Under the pieces are notes generated by a model. The model did no database searches, was not told where the DNA came from, and worked only from the letters and a program-made list of their open reading frames with translations. 48,963 nt of DNA from an uncultured Alphaproteobacteria bacterium (lineage in GTDB: Bacteria; Pseudomonadota; Alphaproteobacteria; Rs-D84), in contig CAMZDE010000002.1 in assembly GCA_947305255.1 (NCBI GenBank), positions 1 through 48,963 of the forward strand. The letters are read 5' to 3'. Shown one piece after another: positions 22,069-43,921 of the stretch. The position numbers were made by a program, and so were the translations under genes. Position 1 is the first letter of the stretch; every line of letters starts with the position of its first letter.

Positions 22069-24489
22069 TTATGCCGCATACGAATGATCGGTCATCCAAT
22101 CATTATAGATTTGAACCATTTTGCCGTTATCCATCTTTTTCTGTAATTTTTTCGTGCTGAATCTGAAAATGTTTTTAGTATGCCCAGTTTGCAAGAAATC
22201 CCAAAAACCCATTAATTCATTATATTTATTTTTATGATCTGAATCCCAATCTTGATAGCGTTGATTGCGTTTGGTAATGCTGTCCTGGCATGTGTTTATC
22301 ACAGATTGCGCGTTTTCGTAATCATTTATATTTTGTGACAATATGTCGTTTTGATTTTTTTCAGCAGTCAATCTGTTATTGATATTTTGAATTGCTGCGC
22401 GCGCATTTGCTAATCTTTGTTGAACGTTCGGATTAAATGTTGCGATGATACCGCCCGTGGCCTGATATCTGGTATCTATGTCTTGAATTTTTTTGTTTAT
22501 TGCGTTTAAATCTTTTTGGGCCTTGGTCAGTTGTTGTTTCAAAATATCGGCCTGTTGCGCTTCTAGTTGGTTATTAGGTGTGCCGCCCAATCCGCGAAGT
22601 TGCGCTTCCAATCCCAAAATTTCCGCTTCTTTGTTTTGTTTGTTTGTTTGTTCTTGTAAATATACCCTATGGTCTTCTTCCGTTTGTACCAATGGTGCAA
22701 TCGCTTGTTCCAAATTATGGATATTTTCAGACAAACGATTTTCGCGCAAACGTCCATTTGTTAAATCGGTTTTTCGCTGGGTCAATGTCACATTTTGATT
22801 CAATCCTAAATTCGCCTGAGCGGTATTTTGAATGCCGGTCTGTCTTTGGATTTCTTGGGTATCGGCGTTATTTTGAGGTGTGACATAATTGTTCAAGAAA
22901 TCGTTTTTATCTTGTTGATTTTGTTGTTCCCATTCGTCGGATTTTTGTTGTAATTTTCCAGAATGATTAAAACTGGTTCCTGTGCGACGAAGCCCATTTA
23001 CAACACCCGTAACCGCATAGCCAGTCGTTTGAATGCCAAACTTTATAGTTTTATCCACGGCCTTTGTTATCGATTTTATATTTGCGTCTTTGTTCCATGA
23101 CAAACCGCCGTCCGAAAACAAAGTCAAATCTGTTTTGTTTAATGCGTCCATTCTGCGCGAAGTGAATAACCCATATCGCATCACAGACAAAACCTCCATA
23201 GCGGTTTTTGCTTCATCGATTTTGTTGTCGTTGATTGCCTTTAAGACCATTTCTTCAATCAATCTGTGCATTTGGCGACCATTACGCAAAGCACCTTCAA
23301 AAGCCTTTGGCATAGTGCTTTTTAATTCCTGCATCATATCGACAAACCATTTGAAATGGGCGTCGCCAGTTGGTGTTTTGTCTTTCAGTCTTTTTGCAAT
23401 ATTTGATTGTTTATCTAAGACCGCACCAATTCCATCCACAGGTTTAATCTTTTCGCCGTCTAATGCGGCAATAATGCTTTTTGTTGTTGGTTTTACATAT
23501 ATATGATCGCGATGCGCAGTCACATATTTTTTCAGCGTATCTGAATACGTGTCTTTGACATTGTCTTCTATGCGTTGCCAAAGTGTTTTTTGATCGTCAC
23601 GTTTCGGTGCAACGTAATCTTTTTCAGTTATCTTGCCAGTATAATCAGTTTTTGCAATTGCTTCGTCTAATTGCTTTGAAATTTTACCTTTGTCATAATT
23701 TTTGAATACACTATAAACCTTGGTCTTGTCGTGCAAAGTATTCAAAATTTTCTGGTATTCTTGCTTAAATTCATTCAGTTTTGTCGGGTCAACAACAGCC
23801 TCTTGGTTTAATCCGCTTATTATCCCGTTCAAATCCAAATTTTCCAAAGTTTGAACCAATGCTTGATTGCTGATGTCGCCGTATTCCAATCTGCTGGCCA
23901 ACGAAGATATAATCCGGACGAGTTTATTACGAACATTCGGATCAGATTTATATTTTCCTTTGGTCAAAGATTCGATGAAATCTTTATATTCATTGTAATC
24001 GTCGTTAAACAGACCGCTGAACATAGCAAAACTGTTAATAGATGGGTCTTTGAGAACGCTGGTGACAAAATTGTCTATGCTAGTGACAGTTTGTTGATTC
24101 AACGGTGGCAAAGAAAAAATCTTTGTTCGTGGGTCGCCAAAATATTCGTCTAAGAATTTTGTTGCGTCGGAATTGTCTTTGAAAGAATCCCGATTAGCAG
24201 ACATTTCAACCAAAGCATTTTGAATCGATAAAAACAACGATTCCCAAAGAGAATTATCAACATTACCGGCCGCATCTACAAAAGCCGTCGCCGCATCTGG
24301 CAAATCGTTTTGAACCAATTTTCCATTTGCGTTGGTGTGCATCAAATCCTTTTTCCACGATTTCATATCGCCGCGGAAATCGTCTTTTTTGGCGTAATCA
24401 TCAAACCGCGCCCGAATTTCAGGCGGCATTTCGTTAAAATGTCTTTGACGGAAATATAATAACAAAAAATCTTTGACTGACATCGCCAT
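22069..24489 (-). CDS. Large orphan protein (~806 aa) with a Q/N-rich coiled-coil C-terminal third
   Basis: Start placed at MAMSVKDF, behind the RBS AAGGGGTGG. No signal peptide or TM helix. Long heptad-like Q/N/L/E-rich segment (residues ~560-760). No recognised catalytic motif. Confidence 0.6.
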   Translation of the reverse strand: MAMSVKDFLLLYFRQRHFNEMPPEIRARFDDYAKKDDFRGDMKSWKKDLMHTNANGKLVQNDLPDAATAFVDAAGNVDNSLWESLFLSIQNALVEMSANRDSFKDNSDATKFLDEYFGDPRTKIFSLPPLNQQTVTSIDNFVTSVLKDPSINSFAMFSGLFNDDYNEYKDFIESLTKGKYKSDPNVRNKLVRIISSLASRLEYGDISNQALVQTLENLDLNGIISGLNQEAVVDPTKLNEFKQEYQKILNTLHDKTKVYSVFKNYDKGKISKQLDEAIAKTDYTGKITEKDYVAPKRDDQKTLWQRIEDNVKDTYSDTLKKYVTAHRDHIYVKPTTKSIIAALDGEKIKPVDGIGAVLDKQSNIAKRLKDKTPTGDAHFKWFVDMMQELKSTMPKAFEGALRNGRQMHRLIEEMVLKAINDNKIDEAKTAMEVLSVMRYGLFTSRRMDALNKTDLTLFSDGGLSWNKDANIKSITKAVDKTIKFGIQTTGYAVTGVVNGLRRTGTSFNHSGKLQQKSDEWEQQNQQDKNDFLNNYVTPQNNADTQEIQRQTGIQNTAQANLGLNQNVTLTQRKTDLTNGRLRENRLSENIHNLEQAIAPLVQTEEDHRVYLQEQTNKQNKEAEILGLEAQLRGLGGTPNNQLEAQQADILKQQLTKAQKDLNAINKKIQDIDTRYQATGGIIATFNPNVQQRLANARAAIQNINNRLTAEKNQNDILSQNINDYENAQSVINTCQDSITKRNQRYQDWDSDHKNKYNELMGFWDFLQTGHTKNIFRFSTKKLQKKMDNGKMVQIYNDWMTDHSYAA

Positions 24490-24577
24490 TGTGCCACCCC
24501 TTTGGTTTGTTGTGATGTATCCACACACCACAACATGTATTATAATACTTTTTTGCCTGATTTTCAAGTGTGGGCGT

Positions 24578-25249
24578 ATGGTTTCATTCCTGTCAACAAT
24601 TGGTTCGGGTGATGCTATAATTTACAATGTGAATGTGATAAATATATTCTTGAAAATGATACCGTATGTCCTGTCTATCGCAGGCGGCATTTTTGTCTTT
24701 GATTTTTCGCAAAAATACCTGCATAGCCCCGGTTGGATAGATTTAATGGATAATGTGGCGGCGTCGTTATTAGCGATTCCATTGGTGTTTTTGTTCTATG
24801 ATTATTCTAATTTTCTGGTGACGCGTCGTGTGCATAAACATCAGCACGCCAATGTTATAAACGCATTGGACGGACATTTGTTCAAAATATTAGCATACAT
24901 GAAAAATATTATAGGATTGCCGCGTATCGAAGTTCCTATGCAGGACATAAATTTGAACTATAAAAAACTAAATTTTGATAAAAAATACGTTCGCGGAATC
25001 AAGAAACAACTGGGCCTATTGGAAGATTTGCTATATAAATCCGACAAAATAGAAGTTTTGGACCCCCAACACACACAAATATTGTCGTTCATCGCCCAAG
25101 AGTTAAATCAAATCCTTAATGAATTAAAATTTCACAATTCGCCCAAAGAAATTGCGCGATATCTGGAAACCACGCTTTCTATGATAGACGATTGGTTTTA
25201 TTCCACAGGATACACAACGCGTAAGAAAATGCAGTCGACCGCAGAATAA
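24578..25249 (+). CDS. Hypothetical membrane protein (two predicted N-terminal TM helices, cytoplasmic helical C-terminus)
   Basis: ORF divergent from the large protein. The start is uncertain: 24578 (MVSFLS) was chosen to avoid overlapping the neighbour. Confidence 0.45.
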   Translation: MVSFLSTIGSGDAIIYNVNVINIFLKMIPYVLSIAGGIFVFDFSQKYLHSPGWIDLMDNVAASLLAIPLVFLFYDYSNFLVTRRVHKHQHANVINALDGHLFKILAYMKNIIGLPRIEVPMQDINLNYKKLNFDKKYVRGIKKQLGLLEDLLYKSDKIEVLDPQHTQILSFIAQELNQILNELKFHNSPKEIARYLETTLSMIDDWFYSTGYTTRKKMQSTAE

Positions 25250-25318
25250 CCAAGAAGCAAATCAGCCCCTGAATTTTTTTGTTTGCGTTGAATTTCAAAA
25301 TTTGATAAAATAATCAAC

Positions 25319-25502
25319 GTCAGAAAGAATATTTTCTGATGGGGTGTAACGACCCGTGTCGAACTGCGTCAGGGATGACGTAAAATTTCTCCAACATATG
25401 GTTGGAGGGTTGCCGAATATATAGAATAAGGCACACAATTTCAGTTCGAATTGTCGTTAACCTCCAACCACCCGATTCTTTTTCTGGTGGTTGTTCGTTG
25501 TT
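25319..25502 (+). promoter_or_regulatory. Structured leader, copy D
   Basis: Promoter TTGAAT-17-TAATCA, then GTCAGAAA.../TTTCTGA, P3 CGTCA/TGACG, P4 CTCCAAC/GTTGGAG. GGTTGGAGG is complementary to CCTCCAACC. Terminator CCAACCACC/GGTGGTTG plus a T-rich tail. Confidence 0.65.
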
Positions 25503-25527
25503 AAAACCAACAGAAGGAGAGGAAACT

Positions 25528-26157
25528 ATGACAACAAAATCAATATTATTTGCGATACTTGCAACATTGCCATTTGTCGCACGTGCAGAAAATATATCAG
25601 GGGCAATGTATATCGCGCCGTCCGTGGCAGATAACAATCATCCCGCGCCAACAACAAACGCAAACGCACCGTATGGTCGTGTGAATATTGATGTCGCCGA
25701 CCAAGACCATATCGCCACAACTGCGTATGTCAAAGGTGCGTATAATAGTGCGATTGCAGCGGTGAATACATCAATTGATGAAGCAGTATCAGAAACAATT
25801 CGTGTTCTTGAACAACAAGGGTTATATGATAAACAAGATAAATTATTAAATGCCGATGGTGACGAAATATTACAAGATGTAACATCTGGTTCGCAAATAG
25901 ATTCGGAGATTGGTAATAGTCTTGTAAATTTGTACGACGATGATGAATACGAAGCGTTTAGAGATGATATTATTAATGGTTATGGTTTTGAACCTGATAC
26001 TAGTTTAATGACAGCTGGTGCAATATTTGACACAATACATTATGTAAATAAACATCTTGTTGACGCCATAGGCGAAAAACGTGTCACAATATACACAACC
26101 TGGGACGATGATAGTGCAAACGCCACGACGCAGGTATCTTTGACAAGCGCAAATTAA
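25528..26157 (+). CDS. Secreted protein, paralog family member D (longest central insert)
   Basis: Start at MTTKSILFAILATLPFVARA, behind the RBS AGGAGAGG. Conserved N-terminal block and C-terminal RVTIYTTWDDDSANATT. Confidence 0.75.
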   Translation: MTTKSILFAILATLPFVARAENISGAMYIAPSVADNNHPAPTTNANAPYGRVNIDVADQDHIATTAYVKGAYNSAIAAVNTSIDEAVSETIRVLEQQGLYDKQDKLLNADGDEILQDVTSGSQIDSEIGNSLVNLYDDDEYEAFRDDIINGYGFEPDTSLMTAGAIFDTIHYVNKHLVDAIGEKRVTIYTTWDDDSANATTQVSLTSAN

Positions 26158-26849: not shown

Positions 26850-27107
26850 TTATTTTTTATCTTTGTCTTCGCCAGTGTCGTCGCTGGTCACAAATTTAAA
26901 GAAATCTTGTGGTTTTGCCCCAGTTGCGGCCAATATTTTCGCGATGCTGTTCGTTGACGGCCATCGTGGTTGTCCAAATACAGTCTTACGTTTGCTTTTG
27001 TTAAAGGTTGTCGGATCTAACCCGCTAAGTTTTGCCAATCCAGAGCAAGACATTCCGTGTTCACGAGCAAATAATTCAATCGCATGCCATATTTGATGAT
27101 GTGTCAT
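26850..27107 (-). CDS. HTH DNA-binding protein, equivalent to only the N-terminal domain of phage/S24-type repressors
   Basis: HQIWHAIELFAREHGMSCSGLAKLSGLDPTTFNKSKRKT..PRWPSTNSIAKIL matches the HTH domain that precedes the S24 peptidase domain in alphaproteobacterial repressors. Here it is followed only by an acidic tail. RBS AGGGGGA. Confidence 0.65.
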   Translation of the reverse strand: MTHHQIWHAIELFAREHGMSCSGLAKLSGLDPTTFNKSKRKTVFGQPRWPSTNSIAKILAATGAKPQDFFKFVTSDDTGEDKDKK

Positions 27108-27369
27108 AATGTTTTCCCCCCTATTGTTTTGTTTTTAGTTTGGTTAGTTTTTACTTCGTTTGGGTATATTATCAAATAAAGAGAAAAAAATCAATTAAAA
27201 CAACCATAATAAGAAAAGAAACCTATTGTGAAAAATAGTGTTTACTGTTGTGATGGCAGATTTGTGCGGTGTTTTTATCTTTAAAGCTATATAGAAAGAA
27301 AATATTAAAACTAATAAAAATACCCTAAAATTCGATTCGAATTAATAATCCCAGAATCAAAAGATTTTG

Positions 27370-27744
27370 TTATCTTATGCGTTTGATTTCCATACCGACA
27401 ACGTGTTCACGGTTCAATTCTTCGCGCGATACAAATTTGGTAATAATGTTCATCAATTCATCAATGTTTTGAAATCCAGAACGCTTAATATCGATTTTTT
27501 TAAACAAATTCTCAAAATCAGGCGCAACATGCATATTTAAAACTTCGCAGATAATATATTCGTCTGTGTTTTCAGCATCAAACAGTAAAAATTTGTCGCC
27601 AATTTTAACTTTTTTGCGTTTGTCGTCGTACGCGCGTAATTCAATGTCTTTTTGCCCAGATTTTATCATTTCAAAATATTTGTGCCGAACACTCATAGTG
27701 AACTGATACGTAATGTCAGATTGAATGTTTTTATCTTTTGTCAT
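27370..27744 (-). CDS. ASCH (PUA-like) domain protein
   Basis: 124 aa. KYFEMIKSGQKDIELRAYDDKRKKVKIGDKFLLF is the typical ASCH N-terminal beta-barrel pattern. Confidence 0.7.
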   Translation of the reverse strand: MTKDKNIQSDITYQFTMSVRHKYFEMIKSGQKDIELRAYDDKRKKVKIGDKFLLFDAENTDEYIICEVLNMHVAPDFENLFKKIDIKRSGFQNIDELMNIITKFVSREELNREHVVGMEIKRIR

Positions 27745-28116
27745 GAGATTGTTCCTTATGTTAATATTTTGACATTGTTACTTGTCTTTGACCAGTGATT
27801 AAACCATCGAGTGTCTTGATTAGTTTTGTTTTTTCTTTGTTTTATTACAAAATAGTAGAAAGCAGGATTGAAATCAATACAAAATAGGGATAAAATAGGC
27901 TCAAATAGAGAAAAAGGTTAGAGAAAACCAAATAAAAATCGCTCTTTTTGGGAACTATGTAATTTTGGGCACGTTTGTATAAACATCGGTCGAACAAGAG
28001 GTGTCTCGGATTTGCTTGCTTAGCTTTAGTAAAAATATTTCAAACCTAATACGACATATTCAGACAAAAAACTTTATTTTGTTTTGGTCAAGCATCAAAA
28101 CGGGCGTTTTAGATGC

Positions 28117-28144
28117 TTGACTTATTATATTTTTGAGCTAGAAT
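28117..28144 (+). promoter_or_regulatory. Sigma70-like promoter candidate for cysS
   Basis: TTGACT-16 nt-TAGAAT, 38 nt upstream of the cysS ATG. The -35 element is embedded in the 3' arm of a long hairpin (28087-28121). Confidence 0.45.
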
Positions 28145-28181
28145 CATAGGAGAAACAACACAAAAAATAGCGGTTATTACA

Positions 28182-29624
28182 ATGACAGAACAAATATCTT
28201 TTTACAATACGATGTCCAGAGCTATCGACAAAGTGGAACCAGTAGATGGCAAAGAAGTGAAAATGTATTGCTGCGGTCCAACAGTTTATAATTATGCCCA
28301 TATTGGAAATTTAAGAACATATGTTTTTGAAGATTTGTTGGCGAAAACAATTCGTTTGGCCGGTTATAAATTGAAACATGTTATGAATATAACGGACGTG
28401 GGACATTTAACCAGTGATGCAGATACTGGTGATGATAAAATGTTGCTAGCGGCCGAAAGGGAAAAAATGCAAGTGCTGGAACTTGCTCGTAAGTATGAAA
28501 AGGTGTTTTTCGATCATACCGCTGCTTTGGGAATAAATCGTCCTGATGTTGTTGCACGTGCTACGGAACATATTCCAGATATGATAGCTTTTGTAAAAAA
28601 ATTAGAAGAAAAAGGTTTTGCATACTTTTCTAACGGTAATGTGTATTTTGATACGTCTAAATTCCCAAATTATGGGCAATTATCTAAACAAAATCGCACT
28701 GAATTAAAACACGGTGCCAGAGTAGAGCAAGATGAAAACAAGCGGAACCCATCTGACTTTGTATTATGGTTTACAACATCAAAATTTGAAAATCAGGTAT
28801 TACAGTGGGATTCTCCGTGGGGGCGTGGCTATCCAGGTTGGCATATTGAATGCTCTGTTATGGCGATGAAATACTTAGGTGAGAGAATAGACATCCATTG
28901 TGGTGGTATAGATCATATTGCTGTTCATCACGAAAATGAAATTGCCCAAAGTGAGGCTTATTTGGGTCATAAATGGGTTAATTGTTGGATACATGCGGCT
29001 TTTTTGCAGATGAAAGATGGAAAAATGTCTAAATCAAAAGGTGAGTTTTTAACTTTGGATACATTGATAGCCAAGGGTTATAAACCAGAACACTACAAAT
29101 ATTTCTGCTTGACCTCTCACTATAAAACGTCTTCTAATTTTAGTTTTGATGCGTTAGATGCTGCTAAAAATGCTTACGAATCTTTGGTAAGCAAAATTAA
29201 AGAGCTTAAACAGTCTGTATCAGACAATAAAACCGTGGATATTGAATTAGAAAGTTCTTATATCAAGAAATTCAATAGCTTTATGTTTAATGATTTAAAA
29301 ACACCGCAAGCATTAGCGGTTGTTTGGGAAGTGTTGAGAAATCCAGCGATGCCACCAAAATCTAAACTGAATTTTATGGAACATACAGATAAAATTTTTG
29401 GTTTGTCGTTGGAAGGCATAATAAAAGAACGCGAAGCGGAATTGATGTTACCAGATAACATTTCTAAAATCATAGAACAACGTCAACAAGCTAGAATGGC
29501 GAAAGATTGGAAAAAATCTGATGAATTGAGAGATGTATTGCTTGATAAAGGGTATGGGATTAAAGATTTACCTAATAATCAATTCCAAGTATTTGCTATA
29601 AAAAAAAATTTAATTGAACGTTAA
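28182..29624 (+). CDS. cysS: Cysteine--tRNA ligase
   Basis: 480 aa. Class I motifs HIGN (YAHIGNLRTY) and KMSKS (GKMSKSKG), CGPTVY and WHIECS zinc/cysteine-site residues. Carries the ITDVGHLTSDADTGDDKM-type insertion. Confidence 0.95.
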   Translation: MTEQISFYNTMSRAIDKVEPVDGKEVKMYCCGPTVYNYAHIGNLRTYVFEDLLAKTIRLAGYKLKHVMNITDVGHLTSDADTGDDKMLLAAEREKMQVLELARKYEKVFFDHTAALGINRPDVVARATEHIPDMIAFVKKLEEKGFAYFSNGNVYFDTSKFPNYGQLSKQNRTELKHGARVEQDENKRNPSDFVLWFTTSKFENQVLQWDSPWGRGYPGWHIECSVMAMKYLGERIDIHCGGIDHIAVHHENEIAQSEAYLGHKWVNCWIHAAFLQMKDGKMSKSKGEFLTLDTLIAKGYKPEHYKYFCLTSHYKTSSNFSFDALDAAKNAYESLVSKIKELKQSVSDNKTVDIELESSYIKKFNSFMFNDLKTPQALAVVWEVLRNPAMPPKSKLNFMEHTDKIFGLSLEGIIKEREAELMLPDNISKIIEQRQQARMAKDWKKSDELRDVLLDKGYGIKDLPNNQFQVFAIKKNLIER

Positions 29625-29635
29625 TTTGTAAAAAA

Positions 29636-29660
29636 CGCACTTGATTTAGTGCGCTTTTTT
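29636..29660 (+). terminator. Intrinsic terminator after cysS
   Basis: CGCACT-tgattt-AGTGCG followed by CTTTTTT. Confidence 0.7.
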
Positions 29661-29683
29661 CTTGCCTATATGTCACGTACAAC

Positions 29684-29712
29684 AAAAAAAGCCGTCATCA
29701 GACGGCTTTTTT
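29684..29712. terminator. Bidirectional intrinsic terminator (second cysS terminator; also the terminator of the minus-strand peptide gene)
   Basis: AAAAAAA-GCCGTC-atca-GACGGC-TTTTTT. Confidence 0.75.
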
Positions 29713-29725
29713 ATTTTACAAATGA

Positions 29726-29839
29726 CTAATCATCGCTAGTGCAAGTACAAAAATTCGCTTCTTCAATAATCACAACCTGTTGAGCGGTTTTTTGCGTGGT
29801 TTGAGTTTTGTTTTTAGTGGTTTTAGTTTTTGTTGCCAT
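29726..29839 (-). CDS. Small peptide gene (37 aa), candidate RiPP precursor: MATKTKTTKNKTQTTQKTAQQVVIIEEANFCTCTSDD
   Basis: Hand translation of the minus strand: ATG at 29837-29839, SD AAGGAGA 6 nt upstream, stop at 29726-29728, terminator 14 nt downstream. Too short for the ORF track. Divergent from the radical-SAM operon. Confidence 0.6.
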   Translation of the reverse strand: MATKTKTTKNKTQTTQKTAQQVVIIEEANFCTCTSDD

Positions 29840-29986
29840 GATAATCTCCTTGGGTAGATTGGTTTGCACACTGTACACGGTACAATAGCATTACCGTTTT
29901 GTCAAGGCTATTATTACGTTAAAACTATTGATTTTTCTAAAAAATATTTCTAATCTGAACCGTGATAGGTTTTCAAGAGGAAGCGT

Positions 29987-30997
29987 ATGCATCTAAATGA
30001 GTTAACACATGTCACCTTTGCTATAACAAGAAAATGTAACTTATCTTGTATTTGGTGCTATGAAAATGCATCAAGAAATAGCAAAGAAGTTAAATTATCA
30101 GATGTTAAATCTGTTATTGATCAGTTGGCAAAATTACCTCGATTAAAAAGGCTTGTTTTTACGGGGGGAGAACCCTTTATGCATAGCAATATAAGGGAGA
30201 TTTTAGATTATTGTTTTGAGAAAAATATCAATCATGTGCACATAACGACTAATGCTACATTAGATATTGAGAAGGTTTTAAAAGATTATGTAGGTAAAAA
30301 TTTGTCGTTAAGTGTAAGCGTTGATGGTATGGAAGATGTGCATGATGCTATTAGAGGGAAGGGAACTTTTAACAAAACCATTTCAAATATTCAAAAAGCT
30401 ATTGCGTTGGGTTTTGCTGTAAGTGTGACAACAACGGTATCAAAAAATAATATTGAAGCTGCCGCAGCCTTGGCAGATTTCTTGAAAGAATGCGGAATAG
30501 TAAATTTAAAATTCCAAAGAATGCGTTCACTGGGCAAAGGTGCCACACAGAATGATTTGATATTGTCTCAAAAAGATAACAAGGTTCTCACAGAACGTAT
30601 TCTCAACATAAAAAAAGAAACGGTTGGTAAGATTGGTGTCGGTTATAAAGATCCATTTTTGAATACAATTGATTTAGAATATCTTGATAAGTATAAAGAT
30701 ATGCTAGATAGTTGTATTTGTGGCGGTTGTAGATGTGGTATGAGTTATTTGTTTATAACTGTAGACGGTGATGTGCACCCTTGTCCTTTCTTGAAAATCA
30801 AATTAGGTAATGCGTTTTCTGAGAACATAGGCGATATTTGGTTAAATTCTGAATTATTACAAGCTTTTAGGGTAAAAGAAAATTATAACAAATGCAAAGA
30901 TTGCAAGTTTTGGGGTGTTTGCCGCGGTTGCAGAGCAGAGGCATTTATCCATACCAAGAATATTTTTGGAGACGACCCCGGATGTTGGAGAAATTAA
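29987..30997 (+). CDS. Radical SAM enzyme with a full C-terminal SPASM domain
   Basis: CNLSCIWC (CX3CX2C) at residues 17-24. C-terminal CGMSYLFITVDGDVHPC (CX10GX4C), CKDCKFWGVCRGC and a final GCW. RBS AAGAGGAAG. Confidence 0.88.
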   Translation: MHLNELTHVTFAITRKCNLSCIWCYENASRNSKEVKLSDVKSVIDQLAKLPRLKRLVFTGGEPFMHSNIREILDYCFEKNINHVHITTNATLDIEKVLKDYVGKNLSLSVSVDGMEDVHDAIRGKGTFNKTISNIQKAIALGFAVSVTTTVSKNNIEAAAALADFLKECGIVNLKFQRMRSLGKGATQNDLILSQKDNKVLTERILNIKKETVGKIGVGYKDPFLNTIDLEYLDKYKDMLDSCICGGCRCGMSYLFITVDGDVHPCPFLKIKLGNAFSENIGDIWLNSELLQAFRVKENYNKCKDCKFWGVCRGCRAEAFIHTKNIFGDDPGCWRN

Positions 30998-31656
30998 CCC
31001 TTAAAGAGCAGAACGCAATTTCACAACTTGCTAAAACCGTTGGTACGGTGATTATGGTTATTGTTTACGGTTCCAGGTTGCACAAACTTAAAACTAATGA
31101 TATTGATGTCATATTTGTATGTGAGTCAATAACTAGCCTTGCCAAAATAAATACCGTAAATAATGAAATACTTGCAACTAGTGGGGTAAATATTCATCCG
31201 TTTATAATACCTTTGCACACGTTGATGTACAAGCTATCCTTGGGTGACCCACAGACATTGACATTTTTGAAATATGGTTTCATATTAAAAAATCTTTTGT
31301 TTACAAAGACATTTTTATCTGACTATATATCAAAATTGACCACAAAATCCGAAATTTATGAATTATTATTACAGAAATTGGATGATTGTTTGTTGAATAT
31401 AAAAAAATGTTTTAATTACAGGGATGCAAATTTTATTTTAATATCTATATGCCAATTGATTTGCAGAGATAACGGTTTTATTCCTCGCTTTCCAAATGGA
31501 GGTTTGTTTGAACAGGCGGCTTCATTATGCCCCAAACTAAGCTTTTTGATATTAGAAACAGCATCTGATTATAAAATAAACAAACGTTCATCTGAAAACA
31601 CAATTAAATTGATGGAAAAGCTTATTCAAAACTATAAAAACCTAAAGGGGTTATAA
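30982..31656 (+). CDS. Nucleotidyltransferase-fold (Pol-beta superfamily) protein with a helical C-terminal domain
   Basis: Start moved to MLEKLT, a 16-nt overlap with the upstream gene. VYGSRLHKLKTNDIDVIFV fits the G-S-x9-13-D-x-D minimal NTase motif. No HEPN Rx4-6H motif seen. Confidence 0.6.
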   Translation: MLEKLTLKEQNAISQLAKTVGTVIMVIVYGSRLHKLKTNDIDVIFVCESITSLAKINTVNNEILATSGVNIHPFIIPLHTLMYKLSLGDPQTLTFLKYGFILKNLLFTKTFLSDYISKLTTKSEIYELLLQKLDDCLLNIKKCFNYRDANFILISICQLICRDNGFIPRFPNGGLFEQAASLCPKLSFLILETASDYKINKRSSENTIKLMEKLIQNYKNLKGL

Positions 31657-32759
31657 TGGCTACTAAAAATACGTTTTTATTTTACGATAAGAATAGCAGA
31701 AAAGCCTTTGTCGCAAAAAACGTTCAAGGCACTTATAAAAATAATCCTGAATTGATGAACGAATTGGCAAAACACAACATTTCTGATGATAGTTTAAAAA
31801 ACGGTTCTGTTTCTGTGATAAAAGCAAATAAGAATTATTTTCAAGCTCCGCATCAAATAATGATAGAGCTTACAAAGAAATGTAATTTTAAATGTATTTA
31901 TTGTTGCATAGATTGTGAACATAATGTGTGCAATAACGATTTAACCCATGAAGAGTTTATACGGCTTATAGAAGATATTGTTAAACTGAAACCGAACATT
32001 GTGACATTTACTGGGGGCGAACCGTTTTTAAGGGAAATTACCCATAATGATTTATTTGATGCGATGGAAATATTAACAAATAATGGTATCAATTGTGAGA
32101 TATTTACGAATGGTTCTTTAATAAGTCGATATGCTGATAGAATAGGAAAGTTAAACATTCACAATCTGAAAGTATCTATTGATACTGTTATTGAAGCCGA
32201 GATGCATAAAATCAACCAGGTTATTGATCAACTGGAAAACGTCAAAAAAGGTATAGAGATTTTGACAAAAAACCACATTTCTTTTAGTGTGAATGCGGTT
32301 ATTTTAAAGCATAACTGTGATAATATTGATAAATTGATGGAATACTTATCAAAGCAAAGCATCAGAACTCTTGTCTTTATCAGAGCTTTACCACGTGGAG
32401 GTGGTGAACGCATCCAGCGAAATTTATTAACAAATACAGAATGGGAACAATTCATAGATAAAATATCTGGTCTTTCTAAAGAATACGGTTTTGATATGAT
32501 TGATAGTGGCAGTCATTCTTGCCCGCGTTGTAACATATTTAATACATGTGCTATGTGCAAAGCAGGAATTAGCTTTATGTTAATTAAACAAAATGGGGAA
32601 GTTTATCCTTGTGGATTTGCAACTAGTAAAAATATGGGCAATGTAAAGCAAAAAAATGTTGGTGAAATATGGAAAGATGCTGTTTGGAATGAATGTCGTT
32701 GCAACGGTGTGACGTGTATAACAAAAAGAAAAGATGTTATTACGTTGAAAAAAGTTTAA
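31656..32759 (+). CDS. Radical SAM enzyme with a ~70-aa N-terminal extension and a reduced (twitch-like) SPASM region
   Basis: The ATG overlaps the upstream stop (TAATG). CNFKCIYC (CX3CX2C) at ~residues 75-82. C-terminal CKAGISFMLIKQNGEVYPC (CX12GX4C), then only CRCNGVTC. Confidence 0.85.
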   Translation: MATKNTFLFYDKNSRKAFVAKNVQGTYKNNPELMNELAKHNISDDSLKNGSVSVIKANKNYFQAPHQIMIELTKKCNFKCIYCCIDCEHNVCNNDLTHEEFIRLIEDIVKLKPNIVTFTGGEPFLREITHNDLFDAMEILTNNGINCEIFTNGSLISRYADRIGKLNIHNLKVSIDTVIEAEMHKINQVIDQLENVKKGIEILTKNHISFSVNAVILKHNCDNIDKLMEYLSKQSIRTLVFIRALPRGGGERIQRNLLTNTEWEQFIDKISGLSKEYGFDMIDSGSHSCPRCNIFNTCAMCKAGISFMLIKQNGEVYPCGFATSKNMGNVKQKNVGEIWKDAVWNECRCNGVTCITKRKDVITLKKV

Positions 32760-32773
32760 GACCAGGTATTATT

Positions 32774-33538
32774 ATGAAAAGTGAATATATAGAACAGTTT
32801 ATTTGGGACAAAATTTTTTCCAAAAAGATTGCCAGTAAAAAATTATCTAATAAAAGACCGCAGCTTTATGGAAAATTGCTAAATGATGATACCATAGCAA
32901 TACTAAACGAGATATTAAAAGATAACAATCATATTTCTGTAATAGAGGCAGGTTGCGGTTCTGCTAAAAAAACTTTTAATTTAGCATTATCAAATACAAA
33001 CGTAAATCAAATCACAGCTTTAGATATATCTGCTCAGGCTTTGAATTATGCACGACAAATAACCCCCGATGCTCTTAAAAACAAAACAAAATATGTTCAA
33101 GCTAGTATTATGAATACTCCTTTTAAGGCTAGGTCTTTTGATTTGGTATGGAATTCTGGGGTCATAGAACATTATTCTGAAGCGGAAATAAAAAAGATTA
33201 TAAGAGAAATGTTTCGTATCACAAAAAAGAACGGCTATATCGTCGTTGCTATACCTAATATGAAAAATATTGCTGTTATAAAAGCTGCTTTTTTAGGATT
33301 ACCTTTGTGTAGAAAATATCTGAAGTTCATAAAAGGATATCGCAATACCACTGAGATTTTATATAAAGACAAAACAATCAAGAATATATTACAAGATACG
33401 TTACAAAGAGATGTTGTACTAAAATACGCTGGTGGAGCAGGGTTGATTGGGGTACCAGATTTTATTATCAAAGGCTTGTACAAATTCAGTAAAAATTCTC
33501 GTTTTTCTTTTATGTCATTTTTCATAGTAAAAAAATAA
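32774..33538 (+). CDS. Class I SAM-dependent methyltransferase
   Basis: Start at MKSEYIEQF. Motif I VIEAGCGSAK, post-I LDIS, and FDLVWNSGVIEH. Confidence 0.8.
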   Translation: MKSEYIEQFIWDKIFSKKIASKKLSNKRPQLYGKLLNDDTIAILNEILKDNNHISVIEAGCGSAKKTFNLALSNTNVNQITALDISAQALNYARQITPDALKNKTKYVQASIMNTPFKARSFDLVWNSGVIEHYSEAEIKKIIREMFRITKKNGYIVVAIPNMKNIAVIKAAFLGLPLCRKYLKFIKGYRNTTEILYKDKTIKNILQDTLQRDVVLKYAGGAGLIGVPDFIIKGLYKFSKNSRFSFMSFFIVKK

Positions 33539-33588
33539 TACCTCTTTGTAAAAGACGTATTATTTTTTAATTATTTGTGATAGATATA

Positions 33589-34656
33589 TTAACCGATAAA
33601 ACTAAAATCTGTTTTAGGAGTAATTTTATTTATCGTTTCAACCAATAAATTTATCGTAGATTGCACATCTTCAAACGAACACATTTCTGATGGAGAATGC
33701 AAATAACGACATGGGATACTGACCAGTGCAGAAACAACCCCACCACGAGACAATTGAAGTGGTTCAACATCCGTGCCAAATGGTCTGCCACTGGCTTCAA
33801 CCTGATAATCAATATTTTTTGTTTTCGCTGTTTTTTCCAACAGCTCAAACAATTTTGTGTTGATGTGTGGTCCGCGTGCAATCACCCCACCATTTCCAAG
33901 TATTACTTCTGCATCTGGAACTGAATCAGGTGTATCATTTGTAGGAATCACATCAACCGCAAACCCCACATCTGCTTGCGCTAAATATGCAGCAGTTTTT
34001 ATGCCGCGTACACCGACTTCTTCTTGTACAGAGGCGATTGCTTCTACTGCAACAGATAATTTTTGCTTAGACAACTTTCTCAAAACTTCTAGTGCAATAA
34101 ACGTACCGACTTTGTCATCACATCCACGGCAAGAAAAAGTGTTGTTTTGTAATTCTATGTACCCTTGATACAAAACCATTGAATCGCCAATTTCAACCAT
34201 TTTTTCTGCATCTTTTTTACTTGTGGCCCCTATATCTATAAACAAATCTTTTAATTTTGATGCAAGTTTGGTGTCTTCTATCTTGTGAATAGGTTTTTTA
34301 CCAACAACACCAAACACTAATCCTTTTCTGGTCTTTATCATGACCCGCTGACCTATTACAACCTGAGCATCCCATCCGCCAATTGCTCCAACTCGAAGAA
34401 AACCATCATCTGAAATAGTTCGTATTATAAGACCAATTTCATCACAATGTCCAACAATTACTATTTTGCGTTTTGCGTTTGGGTTAATTATAGCATGTGC
34501 AGAACCAACGGGGTCTACATAAACATTTTTAGTTATCTTTTTTGCTTCTTCAACCCAAGTTTTAACAATGTCTTGTTCGCATCCAGATGGAACAACCGTG
34601 CCTAACAGCTTTTTAAGAAATTCTTTATTTGATATTTGTTGTTTTTTTGTTGCCAT
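33589..34656 (-). CDS. M42 family metallo-aminopeptidase (glutamyl aminopeptidase / FrvX-YsdC-like)
   Basis: Start placed at MATKKQQ, behind the RBS AAGGA. VGHCDEIG, GCDDKVG, SVQEEVGVRG and YLHSPSEM are the M42 metal-ligand blocks. Confidence 0.82.
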   Translation of the reverse strand: MATKKQQISNKEFLKKLLGTVVPSGCEQDIVKTWVEEAKKITKNVYVDPVGSAHAIINPNAKRKIVIVGHCDEIGLIIRTISDDGFLRVGAIGGWDAQVVIGQRVMIKTRKGLVFGVVGKKPIHKIEDTKLASKLKDLFIDIGATSKKDAEKMVEIGDSMVLYQGYIELQNNTFSCRGCDDKVGTFIALEVLRKLSKQKLSVAVEAIASVQEEVGVRGIKTAAYLAQADVGFAVDVIPTNDTPDSVPDAEVILGNGGVIARGPHINTKLFELLEKTAKTKNIDYQVEASGRPFGTDVEPLQLSRGGVVSALVSIPCRYLHSPSEMCSFEDVQSTINLLVETINKITPKTDFSFIG

Positions 34657-35021
34657 CGACATTCCTTTTTTTGAAAACACAGAGTATAAATCCATACCTT
34701 TTTCGATTATTAAACAAAAAAAACGAACACGCAACTTTAATTTGTTATTATACTTCTTTTTGCGTAGTAAATATGTAGATTTTTTGTTTTATGGCTGTAA
34801 TTAGCCACAGAAAACACAAAAATATTAACAGACACACGGACTAAGATGTTGGTTCCCTGCGGTTTTTAAGAAATTATTTGTTGTGACGTACGGACTAGTC
34901 CGTATGTTTGAGTATATTTTTGGTAAAAATAGTTATTTTAGAAGTTTTATAAACAATCAATATTTTATCAAAATTCCGCAGAAATCCGTAGTGTTCCGCA
35001 TATATAATCTGTCCGTTTTTT

Positions 35022-35043
35022 TGACATACGGATTAACAGCAAC
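35022..35043. repeat. 22-nt exact copy of the tRNA-Asn-derived att junction (identical to 41837-41858)
   Basis: TGACATACGGATTAACAGCAAC occurs at both positions. It spans the tRNA-derived ...ACAG plus the island-side CAAC. Confidence 0.6.
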
Positions 35044-35367
35044 AGTTCTAGTGTCAAAAAAATCGGCTGTAATATGCAGAAATCAGGGATTTTTATTGTG
35101 TACTGTTGTATAAAAATGGAAAGTAGTATGCAAATATGTACATTTTTAGATTGGTCAAAAACAGTATTCAATAGTATAAAAAAGAGTACATTATATACAT
35201 TCTCACGCAACGAAATCGTGTGAGAGAGTATGTTTCATTTTTAACGATATCGTGAACGATTTCATAAACGATATTGTTACGATTTAGTTAATCAAAATCA
35301 GTTGCTAAAACACCGATTTTATACTAGGATTAAAATAGAAAAAAATAATAAAACAACGAGGTATAAA

Positions 35368-35493
35368 ATGGCAAAACAACATGAACCAAGAAAAGCTGTT
35401 TTTATAAAAAAGGGTTGGTTTTTGTTCTGGTGTTTGGCATGTCCGCCAATCGCCTTTCTATACGTCGTATGTGCAGATAGTATGGAGATATAG
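35368..35493 (+). CDS. Small membrane peptide (41 aa)
   Basis: MAKQHEPRKAVFIKKGWFLFWCLACPPIAFLYVVCADSMEI. RBS GAGGT upstream. One hydrophobic helix. The stop lies 1 nt before the next gene's ATG. Confidence 0.4.
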   Translation: MAKQHEPRKAVFIKKGWFLFWCLACPPIAFLYVVCADSMEI

Positions 35494-35494
35494 C

Positions 35495-36145
35495 ATGGAA
35501 GTATTTCTATCGACGTTTTTTGGTGCATTGGCGGCATTTTTATGTTCTGCTGTTTATGAATGGTTTAAAAATAGAACTCGACGCCAAGAATTGCTGACAA
35601 CATATTTTCATAATTTATTTACCGCTTTGCGTAATTTGACAATATTTGCAAATAATGCTCAGAATACATTGACCCAAGTAAAGATAAATCCAAATTATTT
35701 ACGATTTCCACCAATCAAAAATATTCAATTTGACTTCCATGAAGAAGATCTAGCTTTTGTGCAAAAACACCATGATTCCTTTTTTGATTCGTTAATTCAA
35801 TTGAAAATAGAATTAAACACAATGCATGAACTTGGTGAATTATATAAAGAAACAAGAGAAATACAATTTTTATACGATATTCACAATCGTATATTTGCTC
35901 TCGCTTGGCAAATAGTTATTACAATGCAGAATGTTAACAGCTATATGAAAAAGTATTATAAGACGGATTTGACAACTAAGCCAATAACAGATGGTTGGAA
36001 TAACGTGGATAAACAGTGTGACGAGTGGTTTGAAATTTTAAAAACATGGTCAGATCAAGAATTGGTTAAAGTGATAAAGAATAGTATAAAAACGATAAAA
36101 GAATCTTGGCCTATCGATTTTGGAATGAAAGAAGTGAATAAATGA
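35495..36145 (+). CDS. Hypothetical protein with an N-terminal TM helix (216 aa)
   Basis: Start at MEVFLSTFFGALAAFLCSAVYEW, behind GGAGA. The rest is helical with no recognised domain. Its stop overlaps the ASCH gene start (ATGA). Confidence 0.5.
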   Translation: MEVFLSTFFGALAAFLCSAVYEWFKNRTRRQELLTTYFHNLFTALRNLTIFANNAQNTLTQVKINPNYLRFPPIKNIQFDFHEEDLAFVQKHHDSFFDSLIQLKIELNTMHELGELYKETREIQFLYDIHNRIFALAWQIVITMQNVNSYMKKYYKTDLTTKPITDGWNNVDKQCDEWFEILKTWSDQELVKVIKNSIKTIKESWPIDFGMKEVNK

Positions 36146-36513
36146 CAACAATACTACTATCTATTAAACCAAAATTTGTTGCAAAAATATTTGCTGGTGA
36201 AAAACATTTTGAATTTAGAAAGCGCATACCTAAACATTCGGTAGATAAATTGATAATTTATAGTTCTTCGCCGGTATGTGAAGTAATGGGAGAAGCCGAA
36301 ATAGAAAAAGTCTTGGTTGATACCCCAGAAAATATATGGAATAAGACAAAACATCAGTCTGGAATTGATTCAAAATTCTTTTTCGAATATTTCGAAAGTA
36401 AAAGAGTCGCATATGCGTACAAATTAAAAAATATTAAAAGATACGTTCAGCCAAGAAAACTTAGTGATTACGGTTTAAAAACTGCGCCACAATCATTTAG
36501 TTATATTAAATAA
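36142..36513 (+). CDS. ASCH (PUA-like) domain protein
   Basis: LLSIKPKFVAKIFAGEKHFEFRKRIP...LIIYSSSPVCEVMGEAEI...AYAYKLKNIKRY is the canonical ASCH pattern. Confidence 0.75.
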   Translation: MTTILLSIKPKFVAKIFAGEKHFEFRKRIPKHSVDKLIIYSSSPVCEVMGEAEIEKVLVDTPENIWNKTKHQSGIDSKFFFEYFESKRVAYAYKLKNIKRYVQPRKLSDYGLKTAPQSFSYIK

Positions 36514-36582
36514 CATTTTTATTATTGTTGACTTGACTTTATACATTGTTTTGGGCTAAGTTTTTATCAAGGGAAAGGATAT

Positions 36583-38046
36583 ATGGAAATAGTAGCCAAG
36601 CAACACAGGGTGAAAAATATGGGGGGGGTTTATACCCCATTCAGCATCGTGCAAGAAATGCTGGATTATCTGGCTTTTAATGGCACGGATATCTTATCAA
36701 AACATATAATGGAAAACAGTTGTGGTGATGGCGCATTTTTGTCCGAAATAGTACGCAGATATTGTGATGCGTTTGTTTCTATTGCAAATAATGATTTAAG
36801 CCGTTTGAAACATGATTTAGAAACATATATTCATGGTATTGAATTAGATAAGACTGAGTGCACAAAATGTATAAAACGTTTAGATACTATTGCTCTTCAA
36901 TATGGTATACAAAATGTTGTGTGGGATGTTATGAATGAGGATGCTTTAACTGTAAACAAATACGATAACAAGATGGATTTTGTTGTCGGGAATCCACCTT
37001 ATGTTAGAGTTCACAATTTGGAAAATTATGATTTAGCAAAAAAGTTTTCGTTTGCACAAGAGGGAATGATTGACTTATATCTGGTTTTTATTGAACTTGG
37101 CTTAAAGCAACTCAATAAAAGCGGAAAAATGTGTTTGATTACTCCGAGTTCCTTTATGACCAGTAAATCTGGTAAAAATTGCAGAGCGTGTATAAATAAA
37201 AACAAAAAATTATCAATGGTTGTCGATTTAGGTCAAGAACAAGTGTTCGACGGTATATCGGCATATACGGCCATTACTTTATTTGATAATGGACTAACAC
37301 ACAATGAGATTCGGTATGTAGAACATAGTACACAGGACAGTTTTAATTTGCCATATGATACAGTTTTTAAGCATGGTACGATGTCCTTTGATGATGAAGA
37401 CACGTTGGGGTTATTGTCGGATATAGATTCTTTTTACAAAGATCAGGTAAAGCGCAGCATAGTTGTAAAGAATGGTTTTGCTACATTGGCAGATACGTGT
37501 TTTATGCAAGATTTTGAATCATCAGAAAAAATTTATATTGATGTCGTAAAAGCATCTACTGGCAAGTGGACAAAATGCTTGTTCCCATATGATTTTCCTG
37601 GTGTGCCTATGGAAGAAGCTTTTATAAAGCAAAATTTTATGTCCGCATACACACATTTGCAATCATTTAAAGATAAATTAGAAAAACGAGCCATTGATTC
37701 TGCTGGGCATTGGTATCTGTTTGGAAGAAGCCAAGGAATCAAAGATGTTTTCAAAAATAAAGTATCTATTAACACGTTAATTAAAGATGAAAGCAGTATA
37801 AAACTAATAAATGTTCCTGCCGGATCAGGTGTGTATAGTGGTTTATACATATTGTCAGATTATAGTTTTGATGATATAAAGCGTGTTATTTATGACCCTA
37901 AATTTATAAAATATGTAAAAGCATTAAAGAAATATAAAAGTGGTGGATACTTTACATTTTCTTCGCTAGAATTGGAAAAGTATTTGACCTATATGTTAAA
38001 AGGAGATACACAAGATGCAAAACGTCAATTGCGCCTTTTTGGATAA
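36583..38046 (+). CDS. Type II N6-adenine DNA methyltransferase (gamma-class, Eco57I/TaqI-like)
   Basis: Motif I ENSCGDGAFL and motif IV VVGNPPYVRV, with a long C-terminal target-recognition region. Confidence 0.87.
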   Translation: MEIVAKQHRVKNMGGVYTPFSIVQEMLDYLAFNGTDILSKHIMENSCGDGAFLSEIVRRYCDAFVSIANNDLSRLKHDLETYIHGIELDKTECTKCIKRLDTIALQYGIQNVVWDVMNEDALTVNKYDNKMDFVVGNPPYVRVHNLENYDLAKKFSFAQEGMIDLYLVFIELGLKQLNKSGKMCLITPSSFMTSKSGKNCRACINKNKKLSMVVDLGQEQVFDGISAYTAITLFDNGLTHNEIRYVEHSTQDSFNLPYDTVFKHGTMSFDDEDTLGLLSDIDSFYKDQVKRSIVVKNGFATLADTCFMQDFESSEKIYIDVVKASTGKWTKCLFPYDFPGVPMEEAFIKQNFMSAYTHLQSFKDKLEKRAIDSAGHWYLFGRSQGIKDVFKNKVSINTLIKDESSIKLINVPAGSGVYSGLYILSDYSFDDIKRVIYDPKFIKYVKALKKYKSGGYFTFSSLELEKYLTYMLKGDTQDAKRQLRLFG

Positions 38047-38731
38047 AGTGAAAGAATCTTTTCGATTGTATTTGGATACAGGTGCCCGTAGTAATGAAAA
38101 GTTAAAGCCTATTCATTCTTTTATAGCGGATGCATTAAAGCAAGAGCTGAATGATCCTGAGCTAACTTTTTGTTCTTTAAGACCAGGACAGCGCGGTGGC
38201 GAAAAATCGGTTGCTGGTAGATATATGGATAAGAATGTCGATATTGCGGTTTGTAGAGGGAATACTGTTCTAGGGGCTGTAGGTTTTAAGTTCGTAATGA
38301 GCAATTATAAACAAAATTCTAATAATTATTTTGAAAATATGCTAGGTGAAACAGCTAACATCAGATGTAATAGAATTCCGTATTTTCAAGTTTTAGTTTT
38401 GTTAAAAGAATTACCTTACTATGATAATAGTGGGAGAATTACGAGAACAGAACATATAAATGAACACAATCTGCATAAATATATTAAGCTGTCCGAAGAC
38501 AATATTGAAACCTTTTTTCATACACCAACAAAGACATTGATTTATGTGGTTAGTTTGTCTGAATCTTTATCAGATCATCATATTGCAAACAAAGCACAAT
38601 ACAACGAGTTCTTTAGAGATAAAGATCTGAATGTAGATAACGAATTTAATGATCTTTTCCAATCGGGTGTTGTAATTAACGATTTCGCAAAGTTTATCAA
38701 AAAAGTCGCAAGTTATATCAACAGTATTTAG
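38015..38731 (+). CDS. Probable cognate restriction endonuclease (PD-(D/E)xK-like)
   Basis: Overlaps the methyltransferase 3' end by 32 nt. VDIAV...AVGFKF resembles a D...(E)xK core, although G replaces the acidic residue. The assignment rests mainly on position. Confidence 0.45.
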   Translation: MQNVNCAFLDKVKESFRLYLDTGARSNEKLKPIHSFIADALKQELNDPELTFCSLRPGQRGGEKSVAGRYMDKNVDIAVCRGNTVLGAVGFKFVMSNYKQNSNNYFENMLGETANIRCNRIPYFQVLVLLKELPYYDNSGRITRTEHINEHNLHKYIKLSEDNIETFFHTPTKTLIYVVSLSESLSDHHIANKAQYNEFFRDKDLNVDNEFNDLFQSGVVINDFAKFIKKVASYINSI

Positions 38732-38770
38732 AATACTGTCTATCCTTTTAATTGGTATTGTTTCCACAGT

Positions 38771-38869
38771 GCGGCCATTTGGAATAATTTGCGCTGGATG
38801 CGGCGGAGTAACCATGTTTGCCGGCAGGTTAGGTTAGCATTGTGTGTTATGTAGATAGTATTTTCTAAT
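38771..38869 (+). repeat. GC-rich repeat R1 (~99 nt)
   Basis: Aligns with 41200-41288. An exact 17-mer TGCCGGCAGGTTAGGTT lies at 38819-38835 and 41238-41254. Shared ends are GCGGCC..TTTG and ATTTTCTAAT. Confidence 0.6.
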
Positions 38870-38891
38870 GCAGGACTTGGTATGATAGACA

Positions 38892-39494: not shown

Positions 39495-39561
39495 ATTTGC
39501 CCCTTCTCACCATAAATTATAACATGTTTTTTATGAAAAACAATAGAAATAATTAAAATTT

Positions 39562-39612
39562 TTCTATAAAAATATAGAATTGTGTTGACAATGTGAAAAA
39601 AACTGATATAAA
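39562..39612 (+). promoter_or_regulatory. Operator-like inverted repeat plus a sigma70 promoter for the MBL operon
   Basis: TTCTATA-aaaa-TATAGAA (39562-39579) lies immediately upstream of TTGACA (39585-39590)-16 nt-TATAAA (39607-39612). Confidence 0.5.
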
Positions 39613-39646
39613 ACGTACGTATTAACAATTAACAAAGGAAAGAAAG

Positions 39647-40573: not shown

Positions 40574-40584
40574 AGGTCGACAAT

Positions 40585-41103: not shown

Positions 41104-41199
41104 TGTTTTTTTACATCAAGCCCGAAGAACATATCTAATCGTCGATAAACATAAATATGAACCGTATGTTGGTGCACTTTGTGTTAGATTTGGAGTAAG

Positions 41200-43901: not shown

Positions 43902-43921
43902 AATTGCCCCCCTGATGCGTT

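Follow-up and report, generated by a model that had tools for sequence, protein, structure and literature searches.

A peptide gene with an invariant Cys/Thr block beside a two-radical-SAM cassette: candidate precursor of a rare RiPP-type pathway

A short precursor gene beside a radical S-adenosylmethionine (rSAM) enzyme with a SPASM or twitch domain is common to the sactipeptide and ranthipeptide systems SkfA/SkfB, CteA/CteB, PapA/PapB and TrnC/TrnD, in which Cys residues lie in the modified region of the peptide. Clusters with two rSAM enzymes have reported precedents in thuricin CD (TrnC/TrnD) and ruminococcin C. In the mycofactocin and pyrroloquinoline quinone (PQQ) pathways, the precursor combines an invariant C-terminal core with a variable N-terminus, no exporter is linked to the genes, and a peptidase takes part. 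Nucleotidyltransferases also occur near modified peptides: PsmN, a Pol-beta-type nucleotidyltransferase homologue, acts on a modified Ser of the lasso peptide pseudomycoidin (PMC9266682), and an uncharacterised rSAM peptide cluster of Parabacteroides from the human microbiome holds two nucleotidyltransferase genes (PMC9389541). Here we analyze a locus that resembles these systems in part, on contig CAMZDE010000002.1 of an uncultured Alphaproteobacteria bacterium. Within the window, meaning the whole 48,963-nucleotide stretch, a 37-residue peptide gene on the minus strand at 29726-29839 lies next to a cassette of two rSAM enzymes (rSAM-1 and rSAM-2), an intervening "middle protein" with a predicted nucleotidyltransferase fold, and a methyltransferase. 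With a probability of roughly 60%, we read the peptide as a candidate precursor of a rare, uncurated radical-SAM pathway of the kind that yields peptides made on the ribosome and modified after their translation (RiPPs).

The preliminary description of this DNA had singled out the open reading frame (ORF) as a genuine small gene, divergent from an operon with two rSAM enzymes and outside any named precursor family. Retranslation returned the minus-strand ORF with its ATG start, encoding MATKTKTTKNKTQTTQKTAQQVVIIEEANFCTCTSDD with a stop directly after. The expression signals proposed for it also hold up: the strong Shine-Dalgarno sequence AAGGAGA has its 6-nt spacer when counted from the AGGAG core (5 nt from the full heptamer), and the bidirectional terminator 14 nt past the stop, AAAAAAGCCGTC-TGAT-GACGGCTTTTTTT, folds at -19.4 kcal/mol with z = -6.0 relative to dinucleotide shuffles. 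A simple terminator scan missed the structure and gave only the cysS terminator at 29636-29653. Similarly, a promoter scan did not call the TTGACA hexamer at 29900-29905, a candidate -35 element without a firm -10, in the 147-bp divergent region separating the peptide gene from rSAM-1. Public gene calls contain the ORF on two European Nucleotide Archive (ENA) contigs. Length alone is within chance, with 121 ORFs of at least 30 residues in 14 kb. The peptide drew 0 matches in Pfam or NCBIfam at E <= 0.01, in line with its placement outside named precursor families, and its core motif occurred in 0 papers of the library searched in full text.

Comparison with related contigs establishes the ORF as a gene. 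In L004 and L005, whose cassettes are ~94% identical to that of the window, an in-frame insertion of 12 nt and five non-synonymous changes set the leader apart, whereas the codons from AQQ onward, up to the stop, differ only synonymously. The GGAG of the Shine-Dalgarno sequence is kept in L004, and the terminator stem there has changed in a compensatory manner, from AGCCGTC/GACGGCT to GGTCGTC/GACGACC, with a fold z of -5.8. The more distant contig L003 shares 65% identity with the window in rSAM-1, 48% in the middle protein and 47% in rSAM-2. No small ORF was present upstream of its rSAM-1 when one was looked for; a 56-residue ORF, MNNNSNEFESVNKESVETINENDIVFQNIDCGLKLSNVKVQELTIIEEANFCTCTG, lies instead downstream of the cassette on the same strand, preceded by its own TTGACA promoter hexamer. 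The N-terminal 40 residues of this peptide are unrelated to those of the window peptide, and its C-terminal end is IIEEANFCTCTG. IIEEANFCTCT is identical in the two peptides, and its 11 codons show four synonymous and zero non-synonymous differences, which indicates selection on the amino acids rather than on the RNA or DNA. Overall, the 37-codon ORF is a real gene in which purifying selection acts on a C-terminal stretch of 11 residues, as the preliminary description had supposed of the gene itself.

The same alignments redraw the anatomy of the peptide. The N-terminal part is hypervariable and the Cys/Thr block near the C-terminus is strictly conserved, whereas the residues after CTCT are SDD in the window and L004, SGD in peptide P0028 and a single G in L003. 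As judged from these sequences, the conserved unit is IIEEANFCTCT, with a K/T-rich leader and a final one to three residues that vary freely. The earlier division into a VVIIEE junction and an NFCTCTSDD core is not supported. Its proposal of PapB-type Cys-Asp thioethers, through C-x3-D or C-x4-D spacing, fares no better; neither Asp is conserved, which removes the basis for that chemistry, and the PapB model scores 86 of the required 340 bits. A search for small ORFs with a CxC..DD core beside related cassettes had been recommended as a check, and it showed the CxC block to be conserved but not the DD.

Distribution of the locus was followed in a lineage survey spanning ~15 billion proteins and in searches of 5.8 billion protein clusters. 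The trio of rSAM-1, middle protein and rSAM-2 was found in three lineages, and in all three the peptide lies within 2.3 kb of it. The peptide gene is upstream and divergent in the window, L001, L002, L004 and L005, but downstream and on the same strand in L003, so the predicted co-occurrence of peptide and two-rSAM cassette is borne out in 3/3 lineages and in two gene orders. Among the clusters, only two exceed 33% identity to rSAM-1 (at 94% and 65%), for a total of three at 65% or more, and the middle protein has three in all, with only two relatives. An exhaustive phmmer search with the peptide against 1.84 billion representatives gave two matches, both from its own lineage, the 37-residue query being too short and of too low complexity to reach remote relatives; a profile of three peptides found four clusters. 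Neither back-translated EEANFCTCT nor the middle-protein profile matched anything in IMG/VR. One match to the back-translated motif in JGI metagenomes was rejected as chance, since it lies inside a 502-residue ORF in another frame. Among GTDB representative genomes, the nearest relatives of CysS (58-61% identity) come from two metagenome-assembled genomes labelled "Alphaproteobacteria bacterium", which have no cassette, peptide or synteny.

The cassette enzymes were examined by domain, family and fold (Table 1). The plus-strand operon at 29987-33538 is tightly packed, and Pfam Radical_SAM and SPASM domains were found in both rSAM-1 and rSAM-2, so a short ORF does lie beside rSAM enzymes with C-terminal SPASM/twitch domains, the generic criterion for radical-SAM RiPPs. 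Neither enzyme attains the cutoff of any NCBIfam model. For rSAM-1 the top models are TIGR04053 (155 bits, cutoff 395), NirJ2, the ACGX-system rSAM, AhbD and MftC, and the closest solved structure by sequence is SkfB. For rSAM-2, which has an abbreviated SPASM/twitch-like C-terminal region with six invariant Cys, the top models are AhbD and StsB. Its AlphaFold model (mean predicted local distance difference test score, pLDDT, 72.5) has the RiPP maturases SkfB, SuiB and CteB as top full-length fold matches.

Table 1. Features of the peptide locus, in window coordinates
Feature	Coordinates	Strand	Remarks
Precursor-like peptide gene	29726..29839	minus	37 aa; invariant block residues 24-34, variable SDD tail
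Shine-Dalgarno AAGGAGA	29845..29851	minus	5 nt ahead of ATG; 6 nt from AGGAG core
TTGACA hexamer, -35-like candidate	29900..29905	minus	in block conserved between window and L004
Intrinsic terminator hairpin	~29684..29712	minus	A-run and T-run flanks, bidirectional form; 14 nt past stop
rSAM-1	29987..30997	+	336 aa; CX3CX2C (C17, C21, C24); full SPASM, 9 invariant C-terminal Cys; no N-terminal extension
Middle protein, predicted Pol-beta-superfamily nucleotidyltransferase fold	30982..31656	+	224 aa, orphan; helical C-terminal domain
rSAM-2	31656..32759	+	367 aa; ~65-aa N-terminal extension; CX3CX2C (C76, C80, C83)
Class I SAM methyltransferase	32774..33538	+	254 aa; accessory
M42 aminopeptidase	33589..34656	minus	convergent with operon; possible leader trimming
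cysS (cysteinyl-tRNA synthetase)	28182..29624	+	convergent with peptide gene

The gene for the middle protein sits between the two rSAM genes and is translationally coupled to both. Its sequence matches no PDB entry and no PADLOC model, and the Pfam Polbeta score is sub-threshold (17.6 bits versus 26.9) though in agreement with the fold. An AlphaFold2 model (pLDDT 80.8) gave Foldseek matches to 3c18, AAD(9), AadA, ANT(4'), HalB and MntA with probability 1.00 and template modeling (TM) scores of 0.3-0.45. Furthermore, a G30-S31...D40-x-D42 motif is invariant; a third carboxylate was not identified in this protein. On modeled fold and G-S...D-x-D motif, the middle protein is thus assigned to the Pol-beta-superfamily nucleotidyltransferase fold. 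Accessory genes differ between lineages. The methyltransferase accompanies the SDD-tailed peptides of the window and L004 and is absent in L003, where the tail is G; in its place, the L003 operon carries an M17 leucyl aminopeptidase and a YmdB-type metallophosphoesterase (L003 3222-5428). Aminopeptidases of two unrelated families therefore adjoin the cassette, M42 in the window and M17 in L003. As a separate observation, the phosphoesterase could relate to nucleotidyl chemistry of the middle protein.

A pathway can be proposed on this basis, in which IIEEANF would serve as the binding stretch of the peptide, probably for rSAM-2 because of its N-terminal extension and its model resembling SkfB, SuiB and CteB. 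The pairing of two invariant Cys with two different SPASM enzymes suggests that each enzyme would make one crosslink, tying C31 or C33 to another residue of the peptide by a thioether or a related radical-made link. The acceptor would lie inside the conserved block (Glu26/27, Asn29, Phe30 or Thr32/34) rather than at a tail Asp. Glu26/27 or Asn29, four residues ahead of C31 and C33, may be the better candidates, being invariant, and because PapB is promiscuous for Cys-Xn-Asp/Glu. The nucleotidyltransferase-fold protein might nucleotidylate a Thr hydroxyl (Thr32 or Thr34) or handle the peptide as a partner, the methyltransferase could decorate the acidic SDD tail where there is one, and the neighboring aminopeptidase (M42 in the window, M17 in L003) could trim the variable leader. 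The product may act inside the cell, like the cofactors mycofactocin and PQQ, rather than as a secreted bacteriocin. An intracellular, cofactor-like product is as plausible as a bacteriocin, considering the invariant core, the lack of a transporter, the adjacent aminopeptidases and the distant MftC-type kinship of rSAM-1.

Several observations weigh against a precursor role. Only three lineages carry the cassette and two of them are close kin, which leaves about two independent architectures. Two strain variants retain the peptide ORF with the cassette gone, and the peptide gene adjoins cysS in 6/6 contexts, a tighter link than that to the cassette. Neither architecture contains a transporter, a protease-transporter or an immunity gene. 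No RiPP recognition element (RRE) or PqqD domain was detectable by sequence, using Pfam and looking at the rSAM-2 N-terminus and the middle protein; SkfB, SuiB and CteB bear an RRE and the rSAM-2 fold match to them is full-length, but the N-terminal part of that model has a pLDDT of only 50-70, which is low confidence. AhbD and NirJ2 models score at least as high on these enzymes as peptide-maturase models, and SPASM enzymes also take non-peptide substrates. The chemistry is consequently a guess, because no model reaches its family cutoff. Taken together, the RiPP-precursor reading of the preliminary description keeps its gene, its SPASM neighbors, its co-occurrence and a variable N-terminus ahead of a conserved Cys block, and loses the Cys-Asp links and the leader/core boundary.

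The cassette-less variants lead to the strongest competing explanation, which we hold to be unlikely: that the peptide functions as a small protein in its own right, in association with cysS, and that the cassette beside it is unrelated cargo of the island, such as a module that modifies nucleotides or acts against phages. Adjacency to cysS in all six contexts fits such a view, as does a peptide that is intact in two independent variants without the cassette. In L087 (3300-3312), L094 and L095, window positions 29840-34643, comprising cassette and M42 gene, are deleted between two copies of ATGGCAACAAAAA. Both the M42 gene and the peptide gene begin with this sequence, a 13-nt microhomology, and in several sequencing runs the deletion has left the peptide ORF fused to the 5' region of M42 (P0027, P0030). 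In L093, a strain of the L004 lineage (1-2810 aligned with L004 from 1865), homology ends ~30 nt before the peptide ATG, and a KAP-family NTPase (PADLOC PDC-S20) and a 115-residue gene replace the cassette. Defence-type genes stand in the place of the cassette in sister strains, the PDC-S20 KAP NTPase in L093 and a restriction-modification (RM) methylase with an HNH protein in L087, and tandem integrative elements with PDC-M11B and a type II methylase lie just to the right of it in the window. The GC content of the cassette (31.8%, versus 43-46% for housekeeping genes), scores of ~69 bits for both rSAM cores on prokaryotic viperin (pVip) models, and the resemblance of the middle-protein fold to HalB and MntA point in the same direction.

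Other evidence favors a functional link between peptide and cassette. The pVip matches span only the generic rSAM core, and viperins have no SPASM domain whereas both enzymes here have one; the middle protein has no PADLOC match either. In the distant L003, the peptide is again found within 2.3 kb of the cassette despite changed order and orientation. The L093 orphan copy has lost its native promoter and carries D36G, giving an SGD tail, as expected of a decaying remnant, and the L087-type junction implies that the cassette was ancestral and then deleted. From their sequences, the L087-type and L093 variants both look like loss events that left a remnant. Prokaryotic viperin defence as such was rejected on the core-only 69 bits, an NCBIfam viperin model score of 62 against 180, and the presence of SPASM.

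A second alternative keeps the precursor but makes it a PapB-type ranthipeptide, with C33 and C31 linked to the tail Asp residues through C-x3-D and C-x4-D; we consider this quite improbable. The window and L004 peptides do end in SDD, rSAM-1 gives an 86-bit alignment with the PapB model, and PapB, which links Cys with either Asp or Glu, accepts Cys-Xn-Asp spacings of n = 0-6 (PMC9413430). However, the tail is unconserved (SGD in P0028, G in L003) next to 11 invariant preceding residues, and the 86.4 bits of PapB model NF047865 compare with a cutoff of 340, with 16 other rSAM/SPASM models ranking above it. Moreover, the motif occurs once here, against six repeats in the PapB substrate (PMC9413430).

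Regulation of cysS offers a very improbable third explanation, in which the ORF is a leader peptide whose Cys and Thr codons control transcription attenuation. Its attraction lies in L003, where the ORF lies 79 nt upstream of a same-strand cysS and has TGT-ACT-TGC-ACA-GGT-TAG as its last codons, and where the sequence from the peptide stop to cysS (L003 5657-5734) can form two mutually exclusive hairpins that share A7GUC, the second being a terminator. That downstream region as a whole folds no better than its shuffles (z = -1.4), and what an attenuator requires is codons rather than an 11-residue block that stays the same while its codons change synonymously. In the window and L004, as in their variants, ORF and cysS converge, and the ORF runs into a terminator of its own with no gene downstream; convergence excludes an attenuator in the window and leaves the idea possible for L003 only. 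Finally, a chance ORF without product, suggested by how common such lengths are, is barely credible given the substitution pattern, the in-frame indel, the Shine-Dalgarno sequence, the compensatory terminator changes and a block kept at 47-65% cassette identity.

The constant presence of cysS merits attention in its own right. In L003, the cassette is flanked by two differing cysS 5' ends in inverted orientation, 1-219 (minus) and 5735-5932 (plus). Their DNA is 82% identical and becomes one and the same over the last 30 nt, where the contig stops, which implies that cysS is present twice around the cassette or that a segment there is invertible. In the window, the GC content of cysS is 35%, and a low-GC tract of 31-35% at 27000-44000 takes in cysS, the peptide gene, the cassette, M42 and the elements to the right. 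Given this low GC relative to housekeeping genes, cysS itself may have been horizontally acquired. We can imagine, as a long shot, that the product is an rSAM-crosslinked, nucleotidylated Cys/Thr peptide that works inside the cell, either as a peptide-derived cofactor or by inhibiting cysteinyl-tRNA synthetase in Trojan-horse fashion, with the low-GC adjacent cysS providing resistance or target bypass and the aminopeptidases releasing the active part. The resistance role would draw on cysS always adjoining the peptide gene and on the two copies flanking the L003 cassette.

The surroundings are those of a bacterial chromosome, with genes for LigA, a class A penicillin-binding protein, RNase E/G, acetate kinase and RecG, and Rfam found only tRNAs in the window. 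The 3' half of a tRNA-Asn (48882-48957) is repeated exactly over 48 nt at 41807-41854, with an 18-nt core at 35022-35039, and a tyrosine integrase is encoded at 47469-48584. These repeats and the integrase indicate two putative tandem integrative elements directly right of the cassette and M42, at ~35.0-41.8 kb and 41.8-48.9 kb. The first (36142-38046, 38892-39494) contains the candidate defence gene PDC-M11B (PADLOC, 149 bits), together with genes for an S24 (LexA/CI-like) peptidase and an Eco57I-type type II DNA methylase (434 bits); L087 has a different RM methylase and an HNH protein at the corresponding place. On gene content, the locus is a variable defence hotspot. ORFs of 832, 258, 251, 224, 308 and 172 residues (22069-24567, 24473-26157, 35471-36145, 39647-41103) had no Pfam match at the thresholds used.

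If the peptide is indeed a precursor, it would define a new precursor family and enzyme set within the radical-SAM RiPPs, distinguished by a minimal invariant CTCT core, two distinct SPASM enzymes and a fixed nucleotidyltransferase-fold partner. To our knowledge, no characterised RiPP pathway combines these features, and we found none. Uncharacterised rSAM-RiPP families are numerous, which makes the locus a lead rather than a surprise. It is a small system, four genes and a 37-residue peptide, that could reveal a new crosslink or peptide-nucleotidylation chemistry, and its constant cysS adjacency hints at a link to tRNA-synthetase biology. Only a few uncultured bacteria of low GC content carry the cassette.

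Scored against the curated families tested (PapB, StsB, SkfB, SCIFF, MftC, PqqE, ACGX and pVip), the locus falls outside each of them. Its resemblance to sactipeptide and ranthipeptide systems extends to SkfB, which leads the solved structures both in the sequence comparison of rSAM-1 and in the fold comparison of the rSAM-2 model. Nonetheless, StsB scores 91 bits on rSAM-1 and 105 bits on rSAM-2 against a cutoff of 625, and SkfB 46 against 300. Furthermore, the C-terminal C-T-C-T block of the peptide holds the only two Cys it has, and no transporter, protease or sequence-detectable RRE goes with it. The Cys-X3-Asp repeats of PapA are missing, and there are two Cys rather than the six of SCIFF.

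Comparison with mycofactocin and PQQ follows a similar pattern. MftC is among the top rSAM-1 models at 125 bits, yet below its cutoff of 265, and PqqE reaches 77.5 against 381. Relatives of rSAM-1 at 27-29% identity adjoin MftB-like genes and an MftA-like ORF ending ...CILEEINIEELAVDGICGIY, whose I-L-E-E-x-N is loosely like the IIEEAN described here. In two such clusters (L088 4510-6041, L090 135-1434), the MftA-like ORF, the MftB-like chaperone, the rSAM and a glycosyltransferase precede LarE/LarB/LarC-like genes (NAD_synthase, AIRC, Ni_insertion), which is an uncommon combination. By comparison, the window cassette has no MftB or PqqD gene and L003 no MftB-like gene, and a second rSAM and a nucleotidyltransferase-fold protein take the place of MftD/E/F. 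The peptide ends in CTCTSDD, without the C-terminal GVY/GIY of MftA or the E...Y of PqqA, and its variable C-terminus makes C-terminal decarboxylation chemistry unlikely.

The middle protein also sets the locus apart from the sactipeptide and ranthipeptide systems, being a fixed component here. The PsmN and Parabacteroides clusters, with genes of a similar description, are a limited precedent. The middle protein is kept in all lineages, and for this reason it looks like a core component of the putative pathway rather than a tailoring one.

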